A DNA stretch of 5,316 bases from a virus (taxonomy: Duplodnaviria; Heunggongvirae; Uroviricota; Caudoviricetes). The translations under genes were made by a program, and so were the position numbers. The stretch covers positions 1 through 5,316 of IMG/VR virus record IMGVR_UViG_2671180903_000019. One strand, given 5' to 3'. Below are positions 4,212 through 4,538 of the stretch, piece after piece (the stretch's first letter is position 1; every line of letters starts with the position of its first letter). A model generated the notes under the pieces. The model did no database searches. It saw only the letters and a program-made list of their open reading frames with translations, and was not told the origin of the DNA.

Positions 4212-4538
4212 TCAGGGTGCAGAAGGACTAAAGATAAACGTTTTCTTCACGCCTTTACGCGGCCTGTCCTTCTCAAATCGCCATTTTGCCATCGCCTTTA
4301 CAACCTGCTCATCAAACAGATGGTGCGGCTCTGAACGGATAAACTCAATTCGGGTGACAGTACCATCAGCACCAATATCAAACTTCACATCAACCCGTCC
4401 CTTTATATAATTTGCCGCTGCATAGGCCGGATATTGTGGTAATGCCTTAACCAACTGTCGGGGCATATCTGTTTTATGTTGCGTACAGCCCATAACCAGA
4501 GAAGACAACAAAATAATTAACGGAAGATTTCTTTTCAT
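4212..4538 (-). CDS. Predicted lipoprotein with a TonB C-terminal-like domain (prophage moron candidate)
   Basis: Likely start ATG at 4538 with GGGA 6 nt upstream (alternatives ATG 4544, GTG 4553); stop at 4212-4214. The signal peptide MKRNLPLIILLSSLVMGC ends in a lipobox-like VMGC. The mature part PQYPAYAAANYIKGRVDVKFDIGADGTVTRIEFIRSEPHHLFDEQVVKAMAKWRFE aligns by eye with the E. coli TonB C-terminal domain ([57 protein letters not shown]). Confidence 0.75.
   Translation of the reverse strand: MKRNLPLIILLSSLVMGCTQHKTDMPRQLVKALPQYPAYAAANYIKGRVDVKFDIGADGTVTRIEFIRSEPHHLFDEQVVKAMAKWRFEKDRPRKGVKKTFIFSPSAP

Follow-up and report, generated by a model that had tools for sequence, protein, structure and literature searches.

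The window that we analysed, a stretch of 5,316 nucleotides from a Caudoviricetes virus, carries a prophage moron encoding a predicted outer-membrane lipoprotein whose mature part comprises the whole C-terminal domain (CTD) of TonB. Our results confirm that this domain matches TonB far beyond chance, and the gene itself is real and under purifying selection. Among the mechanisms that we weighed, the best supported, at a probability of roughly 40%, would be that of a decoy which occupies TonB boxes at the inner face of the outer membrane. The gene already has an annotation in public records and is thus no unnoticed feature, and full-text literature searches returned no functional study of it.

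Results

The gene and its signals

In the ORF listing of the window, the minus strand is open over 4212..4553, and the best-supported start in this frame is the ATG at 4538, which gives a protein of 108 aa beginning MKRNLPL (Table 1). We chose it over the upstream ATG at 4544 because the latter is absent from the phage 21 allele and from L064-type alleles; the phage 21 record also annotates a ribosome-binding site at the place equivalent to the GGGA at 4545-4548. RefSeq gives the same length of 108 aa, so that the 109-111 aa of the original prediction were slightly off, and the ORF analysis bears out its coordinates, 4212-4538. Sigma-70-type sites, that at 4571-4598 among them, are no more numerous in the region than in shuffles. 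Of this candidate promoter, the phage 21 allele shares the -10 block, TGT(T/C)AGAATAAGAC, but not the -35. No terminator was found 3' of the gene, and an Rfam search of the whole window gave nothing relevant.

Table 1. Features of the window around the gene for the TonB-CTD lipoprotein
Feature	Position	Strand	Basis or remark
TonB-CTD lipoprotein gene, 108 aa (MKRNLPL...)	4212..4538	minus	stop TGA 4212-4214, ATG 4536-4538
Lipoprotein signal peptide (aa 1-17) and predicted lipidated Cys18 (codon 4485-4487)	4485..4538	minus	lipobox LVMG-C, Thr at +2, read from sequence
TonB C-terminal domain, aa 26-104 (= E. coli TonB 153-231), with YP motif Y36 P37 and strand beta3 aa 94-103	4227..4463	minus	profiles, phmmer, AF2/Foldseek, alignment
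Shine-Dalgarno-like GGGA	4545..4548	minus	6 nt 5' of ATG at 4538
Candidate sigma-70 promoter, ATGACC-16-TAGAAT with TG (extended -10)	4571..4598	minus	9/12 match, weak evidence
i-spanin Rz, C-terminal part, runs off the window	5098..5286	minus	Pfam Phage_lysis E=7.8e-18
Rz1 C-terminus, embedded in Rz	5187-5282	minus	proline-rich ORF
Conserved 74-aa hypothetical ORF between Rz and the TonB-like gene	4877..5101	minus	phrog_2571
YlcI/YnfO (DUF3950) gene, opposite strand	3880..4080	plus	profile match
HNH endonuclease, ahead of the terminase genes	3473..3838	minus	profile match
Terminase small subunit TerS	2621..3184	minus	profile match
Terminase large subunit TerL, 5' part, truncated by a deletion at about 1501-1505	1501..2624	minus	profile match and comparison

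The protein begins as a lipoprotein would. Its N-terminus, MKRNLPLIILLSSLVMG followed by C18, fits the usual layout of a positively charged n-region (K2/R3), a hydrophobic h-region and, in the first ~35 residues, a lipobox of the form [LVI][ASTVIM][GAS]C, which reads L-V-M-G-C18 here, with Thr at +2. This signal peptide, cleavable and ending LVMGC, is the sole hydrophobic segment of the protein, and the proposal that the product carries a lipoprotein-type signal peptide is therefore upheld as far as sequence goes. The lipobox was present in all 80 viral (IMG/VR) homologues examined (80/80), and its cysteine is kept in alleles of 71% identity as well as in representatives that are only 44-49% identical. 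The residue at +2 is Thr here and Ser or Ala in the homologues, never Asp in those examined; since the Lol sorting rule holds that a lipoprotein with no Asp at +2 goes to the outer membrane, sorting to the outer membrane is predicted. Lipidation is likewise a prediction from the sequence. A tether of only 7 residues (TQHKTDM) separates Cys18 from P26, where the domain starts.

A complete TonB C-terminal domain

Searches by profile, sequence and structure agree on the identity of the mature part. Both profiles of the domain exceed their curated thresholds, Pfam TonB_C (PF03544) with E=5.5e-15 and 56 bits against a cutoff of 24.6 over residues 36-103, and TIGR01352 with E=2.6e-15 and 56.5 bits against a cutoff of 27.1. 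With phmmer, residues 24-104 align without gaps to the TonB CTD structures 1u07, 2gsk and 2grx of the PDB (E about 1e-16), and the identity to E. coli TonB 153-232 is 39%, as expected from the original prediction that the mature part aligns with this domain. The AF2 model has a pLDDT of 86.9, rising above 96 across residues 31-100, and contains the elements E28-30, H38-42, E47-55, E61-70, H76-83 and E94-103, in keeping with the alpha/beta fold of the TonB CTD, in which a three-stranded sheet packs on helices. Superposed by Foldseek, it lies within 1.0-1.4 A rmsd of the solved TonB CTDs, the match to 2gsk_B, which is TonB in the BtuB:TonB complex, having an rmsd of 1.0 A and a TM of 0.92 and that to 1u07 an rmsd of 1.3 A. 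A fold search of the BFVD library of viral structures gave no significant structural relative.

At the level of residues, Y36-P37, F53, F75, W86, F88 and F103 align with Y163-P164, F180, F202, W213, Y215 and F230 of TonB, so that the YP motif, the core aromatics and beta3 (aa 94-103) are kept, with Phe at the equivalent of Y215. R158, Q160 and R166, through which TonB contacts BtuB and FhuA outside the TonB box, are not conserved in the phage lipoprotein family, and position 166 is a family-specific Tyr. Based on this, the partner or the specificity of the protein may differ from those of TonB. Four further residues conserved in the family, Y39, G56, S69 and L74, also differ from TonB. The alignment places Leu at the Q160 position of the window allele; in TonB, Q160L is a classic suppressor that tolerates altered TonB boxes, a parallel that is no more than suggestive.

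Position, spread and selection

As the original prediction had it, the gene sits between the lysis and the packaging genes on the late-operon strand, which it shares with Rz/Rz1, HNH, TerS and TerL. This slot, after lysis and before HNH/terminase or cos, recurs unchanged in several unrelated backbones (lambdoid, Stx-type, Klebsiella and others). Its occupation is variable, and most phages that share the flanks lack the gene: of 431 phage records with a match to part of the window, only 15 encode the TonB-CTD lipoprotein, and the Stx2c and vB_EcoS phages found among the best-matching records, which align on both flanks of the gene in two pieces, do not belong to these carriers. The GC content falls to 0.40-0.46 over 4100-4700; across the terminase and HNH genes it is 0.52-0.62, and in the terminase genes alone 0.55-0.6. 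By its variable presence, its place at a module boundary and its deviant GC, the gene is a prophage moron.

The window allele and the phage 21 allele differ with a dN/dS of 0.12 at a dS of 1.5, and the homologous ORFs are intact across 40-99% identity. Two alleles occur in E. coli, in 415 and 1225 of 5426 complete genomes and at full-length coverage in 414/415 and 1221/1225 of these, so that between about one in four and one in three complete E. coli genomes carry the gene. It is very common in prophages of the ExPEC type, including those integrated at icd, and it has stayed intact even in a decayed prophage. One Shimwellia copy has an in-frame stop.

The immediate neighbours vary. In phage 21 and in ExPEC prophages, bor/iss directly adjoins the gene, and phage 21 and the icd-integrated ExPEC prophage also carry sitABCD; no sit genes were seen in the inspected regions of window-type (Stx1a/JLK-2012-like) prophages. 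Another homologue adjoins the gene for the Ivy lysozyme inhibitor. Both chromosomal homologues that we examined are from Raoultella, one (L005) beside a glycine-zipper protein and DUF1440/YagU and the other (L003) beside an EAL/GAF protein and a GNAT acetyltransferase, and neither has iron or transporter genes next to it. The annotations of phage 21 and JLK-2012 show no sign of cor or of a receptor-binding J protein of the TBDT type.

Existing labels are inconsistent. The window protein belongs to the RefSeq family 'TonB family protein' (WP_000828072 / WP_000830178), and the phage 21 record and RefSeq use 'TonB family protein' or 'TonB C-terminal domain protein'; some other records read 'Partial tonB-like membrane protein encoded within prophage CP-933N' or 'TonB fragment'. 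In PHROGs, the protein matches phrog_1267 (category lysis, 'Rz-like spanin') over its full length (E=2.6e-42), a label that is probably wrong and looks like annotation by position. The full-text searches, whose matches were TonB-dependent receptors or unrelated TonB-like proteins, also turned up no characterised phage protein of this architecture, in agreement with the original prediction, and the PADLOC models of defence systems did not match the protein.

Discussion

The phage lipoprotein has the docking domain of TonB and little else of it. TonB of E. coli has 239 aa against 108 aa here; where TonB has an N-terminal anchor that couples to ExbB/ExbD and a proline-rich spacer, the phage protein has a lipoprotein signal peptide and its short tether. 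The NCBIfam equivalogs of TonB reflect this, as the phage protein scores 49-73 bits against cutoffs of 265-448 and matches only the C-terminal ~80 model positions. Without the transmembrane anchor and the proline-rich spacer, the phage lipoprotein cannot transduce energy.

We favour the reading in which this protein would be a TonB-box decoy. The tether would hold a complete TonB CTD just beneath the outer-membrane transporters, where TonB boxes, be they those of the transporters or those of incoming group B colicins, would be bound at its free beta3 edge through beta-augmentation. Boxes occupied in this way would keep the real TonB from engaging, and the lysogen or the late-infected cell would admit TonB-dependent phages, colicins and microcins less readily, at the price of some loss of siderophore and B12 uptake. 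We infer both the binding to TonB boxes and the resulting phenotype of exclusion or protection from three lines of argument, namely the intact beta3 edge, the inhibition caused by periplasmic TonB fragments and the precedent of Llp and Cor. The TonB box binds by parallel beta-augmentation of beta3, for which side chains matter less than local secondary structure (PMC11658791). Over-expressing a periplasmic TonB domain inhibits the import of iron by TBDTs (Howard et al., 2001, as cited in PMC9841981), and the dominant-negative effect that the original prediction had ascribed to such fragments holds to the extent of that citation. These laboratory constructs likewise place a TonB CTD in the periplasm without the energy-coupling N-terminus; they are soluble, artificial and over-expressed, whereas the phage protein is natural, diverged and predicted to be lipid-anchored.

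T5 Llp and the prophage Cor proteins are small superinfection-exclusion lipoproteins of the inner leaflet of the outer membrane, and Llp binds the periplasmic plug face of FhuA, a face that is also occupied by TonB; Llp-like proteins are reported to be common in BFVD (bioRxiv 10.64898/2026.03.26.714494). Like these proteins (from T5; phi80, N15, HK022 and mEp167), the TonB-CTD lipoprotein would act on TonB-dependent transporters from the periplasmic side, an action that for the latter is putative. There are also clear differences between the two. Llp and Cor share a fold of their own that is unrelated to the TonB CTD, and they are FhuA-specific and allosteric, whereas for a TonB-CTD decoy the generic TonB box would be the expected target. 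Lambda Bor/Iss offers a further comparison, as it too is a lipoprotein moron just downstream of lambdoid lysis genes; it belongs to a different family, however, lies on the opposite strand with its own promoter, and has a serum-survival function unrelated to TonB.

In favour of the decoy we count the TonB-CTD fold, the conserved lipobox with a residue other than Asp at +2, the short tether, the moron behaviour and the purifying selection. Counted against it are the lack of conservation at R158, Q160 and R166, the position of the Raoultella relatives away from iron and transporter genes, the weak promoter candidate and the absence of a PADLOC model. ExPEC strains depend on TonB for virulence, and a strong constitutive block of TonB would be costly in the carriers (415 + 1225 of 5426 genomes), which include ExPEC-type icd prophages. 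The divergence at the three contact residues, the abundance in ExPEC and the Raoultella neighbours together weaken the case for a block that is strong, constitutive and general.

Several other explanations compete with the decoy. It is unlikely, in our estimate, that the protein serves the envelope alone, with the TonB-CTD fold as a periplasmic anchor, or a module in contact with peptidoglycan, that stabilises the outer membrane of the lysogen and the gene as a fitness or serum-resistance moron that leaves TonB transport unaffected. The neighbours bor/iss in phage 21 and ExPEC prophages, Ivy beside one homologue and the glycine-zipper and DUF1440/YagU proteins beside the chromosomal L005 would suit such a role, as would the family-specific Y39, G56, S69 and L74, and the TonB CTD has been reported to bind peptidoglycan. 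The protein nevertheless most resembles the TonB CTD of enterobacteria, down to the beta3 edge for TonB boxes, and none of the profile searches identified a peptidoglycan-binding motif in it. We consider it quite unlikely that the target would be TonB itself, with the outer-membrane CTD heterodimerising with the host TonB CTD and trapping the few hundred TonB molecules. The phenotype would be that of the decoy (loss of TonB-dependent uptake) and the target would differ, being TonB and not the far more numerous TonB boxes. Stoichiometry favours this target, since derepressed TBDTs greatly outnumber TonB. All aromatic residues of the CTD are conserved, F202, W213, Y215 and F230 of TonB mediate CTD-CTD contacts in vivo, and solved fragments of the TonB CTD crystallise as dimers (1u07 and 1ihr among our matches). 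The physiological relevance of such dimers is disputed, however, and the cost to ExPEC lysogens would apply here as it does for the decoy.

A role in iron uptake or signalling, in which the protein would, for example, work together with SitABCD, the TonB-independent Fe/Mn importer of the same prophage, to damp or re-route TonB-dependent uptake of siderophores or signalling of the FecA type, is distinctly unlikely. The co-occurrence with sitABCD in phage 21 and the icd-integrated ExPEC prophage points that way but does not extend to the inspected regions of Stx1a/JLK-2012-like prophages. A 15-bp palindrome over the candidate -10 agrees with the consensus of the Fur box at 13/19 positions; this best upstream site of the scan is no better than those of shuffles (mean maximum 12.6), and it is deleted in the phage 21 allele. 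The match to phrog_1267 and the position, in every case immediately behind the lysis cassette and on the late strand, would suggest a late-made lysis accessory acting on the outer membrane at lysis, which we regard as very unlikely. Complete Rz and Rz1 genes (or a DUF2514 spanin gene) lie upstream in the same phages, phage 21 having annotated i- and o-spanins besides the TonB-CTD lipoprotein gene, and most of the closely related phages achieve lysis with no copy of it. Folded as an alpha/beta domain of 90 aa, the mature protein has no C-terminal membrane segment; it is neither a short proline-rich o-spanin nor a u-spanin with a C-terminal transmembrane segment, and with Rz/Rz1 present we reject a spanin identity. 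That the gene would be a non-functional captured fragment of host tonB, as the labels 'Partial tonB-like' and 'TonB fragment' imply and as the stop in the Shimwellia copy might suggest, is scarcely credible. The acquired and conserved lipoprotein signal peptide and the ORFs that are full-length in nearly all of the E. coli carriers speak against it, and the dN/dS and the conserved lipobox effectively refute a 'partial tonB pseudogene'.

Meaning of the finding

Even if the decoy reading is wrong, our analysis brings out a lipoprotein family that is strongly conserved, widespread and uncharacterised, with a probably mislabelled PHROG entry. Tentatively, and with a little less assurance than we attach to the decoy mechanism as such, we propose that temperate phages of Enterobacterales have turned the docking domain of host TonB into an outer-membrane decoy that would occupy TonB boxes (or TonB) and thereby close the TonB-dependent route of entry to T1/phi80-type phages, to group B colicins and to siderophore-microcins. 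If this is true, it would represent a generic form of exclusion or immunity by TonB mimicry, distinct in mechanism from Cor/Llp and present in EHEC and ExPEC next to iss/bor. A common prophage gene would then set the sensitivity of pathogenic E. coli to TonB-dependent phages, which would bear on the cocktails used in phage therapy, and it would affect sensitivity to colicins and microcins and hence competition in the gut. Siderophore-conjugate antibiotics, the Trojan horses of the cefiderocol type whose entry is TonB-dependent, would be affected as well, and the decoy would be nature's own demonstration of the principle behind TonB-box blockers as anti-infectives.

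Results

The gene under study lies on the minus strand of the window, which has to be stated explicitly, and the ATG at 4538 is its best supported start. This codon is preceded by a GGGA motif, ATG 4544 is missing in the phage 21 allele and in L064-type alleles, and a 108-aa product with an RBS at the equivalent place is annotated in RefSeq as well as in the phage 21 record. The original prediction of a lipoprotein carrying a TonB C-terminal domain (CTD) was right as to domain and signal peptide, but its length is 108 aa (MKRNLPLIILLSSLVMGCTQHKTDMPRQ...) rather than 109-111. In the signal peptide, two basic residues and a hydrophobic core precede the lipobox L-V-M-G-C18, which is followed by Thr at +2.

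Residues P26-S104 show a gap-free alignment with E. coli TonB 153-231 (39% identity to TonB 153-232). The profile search and fold prediction that had been proposed as checks both came out in favor of the domain. Pfam TonB_C matches with E=5.5e-15 (56 bits, well above the gathering score of 24.6), TIGR01352 matches with E=2.6e-15, and phmmer against the PDB retrieves 1u07, 2gsk, 2grx and 8rd6, each at about 1e-16. An AlphaFold2 model built from a 15-sequence alignment (mean pLDDT 86.9; above 96 across residues 31-100) superposes in Foldseek on TonB of the BtuB:TonB complex at an rmsd of 1.0 Å (TM 0.92), on TonB of FhuA:TonB at 1.2 Å and on 1u07 at 1.3 Å. The domain belongs to the TonB_C family, with all three defining features present. 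The phage protein retains beta3 (aa 94-103), the YP motif and every core aromatic of TonB; R158 and R166 of TonB, which make receptor contacts outside the TonB box, are not conserved in the family, which has its own residues (Tyr at TonB position 166, and also S69, G56 and L74). Codon 33, aligned with TonB Q160, encodes Leu in the window allele, Tyr in the phage 21 allele, and Tyr, His or others across the family. TonB Q160L has been described as a suppressor that restores activity when the TonB box of FhuA or colicin M is mutated, a likeness to which we give little weight because of the Tyr in the phage 21 allele. Codon 94 is polymorphic, being Arg in the window and P0001 and Cys in JLK-2012, E110019, phage 21 and many IMG/VR copies. 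Alleles of the latter kind have an additional cysteine, with no pairing partner, in the loop preceding beta3.

Three other identities were rejected. A TonB transducer requires an anchor and a spacer, and neither a transmembrane anchor nor a proline-rich spacer was found in the sequence or with five enterobacterial TonB equivalog models, of which only the last ~80 positions match (49-73 bits vs cutoffs of 265-448); seven residues separate the predicted lipidated Cys from the domain start. A spanin is suggested by a full-length match to phrog_1267 ('Rz-like spanin', category lysis; E=2.6e-42). Against this, the mature protein folds as an alpha/beta domain and lacks a C-terminal membrane segment, the window already contains an Rz C-terminus (Pfam Phage_lysis, E=7.8e-18) and a proline-rich Rz1 frame, and both an i- and an o-spanin are annotated in phage 21 besides the TonB-like gene. 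The phrog_1267 label is probably a positional mis-annotation, and it will spread via phage annotation pipelines. Finally, a dead tonB fragment is contradicted by a dN/dS of 0.12 (dS=1.5, dN=0.19) between the window and phage 21 alleles, which share 71% amino-acid identity, and by retention of the lipobox in each homologue inspected, including 80 of 80 IMG/VR loci. The gene is under purifying selection.

Positions of the features discussed, in the window unless another sequence is named
Feature	Position	Strand	Remark
TonB-like gene	4212-4538	-
Enclosing ORF	4212-4553	-	in-frame starts GTG 4553, ATG 4544, ATG 4538
GGGA	4545-4548		6 nt 5' of ATG 4538
Codon 94	4257-4259
Codon 33	4440-4442
Rz/Rz1, then 74-aa ORF, then ~330 nt mostly non-coding DNA		-	5' of TonB-like gene
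Proline-rich Rz1 frame	5187-5282
YlcI/YnfO (DUF3950)	3880-4080	+	between TonB-like gene and HNH; position conserved in related prophages
HNH, TerS, TerL		-	after ylcI/ynfO
Junction	1501-1505		TerL, broken mid-gene, joined to espV 5' part, then dinI
dinI/espV end	222-1505		attR-proximal end of JLK-2012-type prophage
Extended -10-like site	4598-4571
Palindrome GAATAAG-T-CTTATTC	4560-4574		perfect, 15 bp; overlaps -10 of candidate promoter
19-mer enclosing Fur-box-like match	4555-4573
Conserved block, ~200 nt	4650-4870	-	compared with ~2700-2850 of L011 (phage 21-type locus)
89-aa ORF	4647-4916		overlaps conserved block
sitABCD, ompC-like porin, bor/iss, TonB-CTD lipoprotein	21967-25416 (L013, phage 21); 33345-36794 (L014, O18:H1 prophage)
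DUF1440/YagU membrane protein	6738-7301 (L005, Raoultella ornithinolytica)		beside chromosomal homologue
DUF1440 protein	277-903 (L012, Klebsiella phage ST13-OXA48phi12.4)		~3 kb from homologue
Ivy-family lysozyme inhibitor	5449-5871 (L024, IMG/VR prophage)		directly 3' of homologue
Shimwellia pseudoproteus homologue	6001-6309 (L004)		just 3' of Rz-like sequence

The location between lysis and packaging genes, as originally described, was borne out, with Rz/Rz1 before the gene and HNH/TerS/TerL after it on the minus strand. The gene order is identical in the intact E. coli E110019 prophage, phage JLK-2012 and Stx1a phages. Phage 21 has the lysis cassette, bor (opposite strand), a small ORF, a 'TonB C-terminal domain protein' and cos; in Klebsiella phage ST13-OXA48phi12.4 the homologue lies between lysis genes and HNH/terminase, and where IMG/VR prophages have a GH19 endolysin and a DUF2514 spanin, it comes immediately after the spanin. 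Only 15 of the 431 phage records matching any part of the window encode the protein, and among the best-matching records the Stx2c and vB_EcoS phages, which fall outside these 15, align in two pieces on either side of the gene. GC content is 0.40-0.46 across the gene vs 0.52-0.62 in the packaging genes. Presence or absence at a module boundary thus goes together with deviant composition, and the gene behaves as a phage moron. One IMG/VR prophage carries a further periplasmic moron in the same slot, an Ivy-family vertebrate lysozyme inhibitor (Pfam E=7.1e-19). The Shimwellia pseudoproteus homologue, with an in-frame stop after codon 30, is probably a pseudogene.

Homology of the window to intact relatives ends at 1501, inside TerL, and what follows corresponds to that end of a JLK-2012-type prophage which carries dinI and espV, from which we infer a deletion of ~25 kb (the rest of TerL, portal, capsid, tail and effectors). 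The TonB-like gene is intact in this remnant. The junction occurs in no complete E. coli genome of our collection, where no match covers at least 80% of the window.

Of the 5426 complete E. coli genomes, 415 carry the window allele, O157, O145, O111 and O103 strains among them, and 1225 carry the phage 21 allele; depending on how far the two sets overlap, their union lies between 23% and 30% of genomes. The phage 21 allele is exemplified by the icd-integrated prophage of an O18:H1 strain, with an ompC-like porin, iss and sitABCD. SitABCD is a TonB-independent Fe/Mn importer, and its grouping with the lipoprotein there and in phage 21 may be a functional pairing (TonB uptake blocked, TonB-independent metal supplied) or mere moron accumulation. 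At 40-49% identity, more distant relatives of lipoprotein type are present in Klebsiella and Raoultella prophages and on the Raoultella chromosome, where one homologue adjoins a glycine-zipper protein and a DUF1440/YagU protein, and a second an EAL/GAF protein and a GNAT acetyltransferase. Judging from gene neighborhoods, DUF1440 and the TonB-like homologue may form a recurring association.

Upstream, an extended -10-like site shares its -10 block, but not its -35, between the two alleles; a promoter of the gene's own is possible but weakly supported. The 19-mer at the palindrome matches the Fur-box consensus at 13/19, no better than shuffles, and the phage 21 allele has lost half of the palindrome. 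Further upstream, a block with short GC-rich hairpins (e.g., CCGCG-N9-CGCGG) is conserved far more between window-type and phage 21-type loci than the TonB-like coding sequence; the ORF overlapping it matches phrog_6954 ('Rz-like spanin', E=8.8e-13), and Rfam gave no match within it. Possible readings of the block are a recombination boundary, the remnant of a gene or regulatory DNA.

Discussion

The product of the gene is exported, carries a lipoprotein signal and has the TonB CTD fold; the gene is under purifying selection and spreads as a phage moron. The original prediction proposed a TonB mimic for superinfection exclusion or colicin protection, and we regard this mechanism as the best available, if unproven, giving it a probability of about 0.4. 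An energy-dead TonB CTD, tethered beside transporters, would compete with TonB, possibly for the TonB boxes of transporters or of incoming colicins, or, less probably, would occupy TonB itself through CTD-CTD contacts. When TonB docks, the TonB box of the transporter pairs with CTD beta3 as an added parallel strand, and local secondary structure of the box matters more than its side chains (PMC11658791). The anchor-free periplasmic domain of TonB inhibits transporter-mediated iron import (Howard et al., 2001, as cited in PMC9841981). Llp binds a surface of the FhuA plug also covered by TonB, Cor proteins have the Llp fold, and a TonB-dependent transporter is accessible from its periplasmic side to small phage lipoproteins lodged in the inner leaflet of the outer membrane (bioRxiv 10.64898/2026.03.26.714494). 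Competition would be expected because beta3, the YP motif and the aromatics are kept, and because of these precedents.

Other readings deserve weighing. The loss of R158/R166, together with the family-specific residues, means that the partner could differ. The variant in which TonB itself is titrated we consider unlikely. A general envelope role, by peptidoglycan or outer-membrane association, is rather improbable too, though it would fit the two chromosomal paralogues examined, which sit apart from iron-uptake and transporter genes. A role in iron homeostasis would fit the sitABCD co-carried in phage 21-type prophages; the inspected parts of window-type prophages contain no sit genes, and the Fur-box-like palindrome is at chance level and missing in the phage 21 allele, making this very unlikely. 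As for competition with TonB, ExPEC-type prophages very often carry the gene, and TonB-dependent siderophore uptake is important to the virulence of such strains, so a strong constitutive TonB block is unlikely. A decoy would have to act partially, selectively or conditionally, or only in late infection.

The existence of the gene is not new, since it has been annotated from the O157 genomes onwards ('partial tonB-like membrane protein encoded within prophage CP-933N'); we found no functional work on it in the full-text literature, a search that could miss an older or very recent study in a subscription journal. The phage lipoprotein would work like laboratory periplasmic TonB fragments. Its outcome would resemble that of Cor/Llp, whose fold it lacks, and it resembles Bor/Iss in genomic niche and in being a lipoprotein, with no relationship in sequence.

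In conclusion, this TonB-like gene is real, widespread and under selection, and we class its product either with phage lipoprotein morons aimed at TonB-dependent transporters or with TonB-domain proteins of a new architecture.
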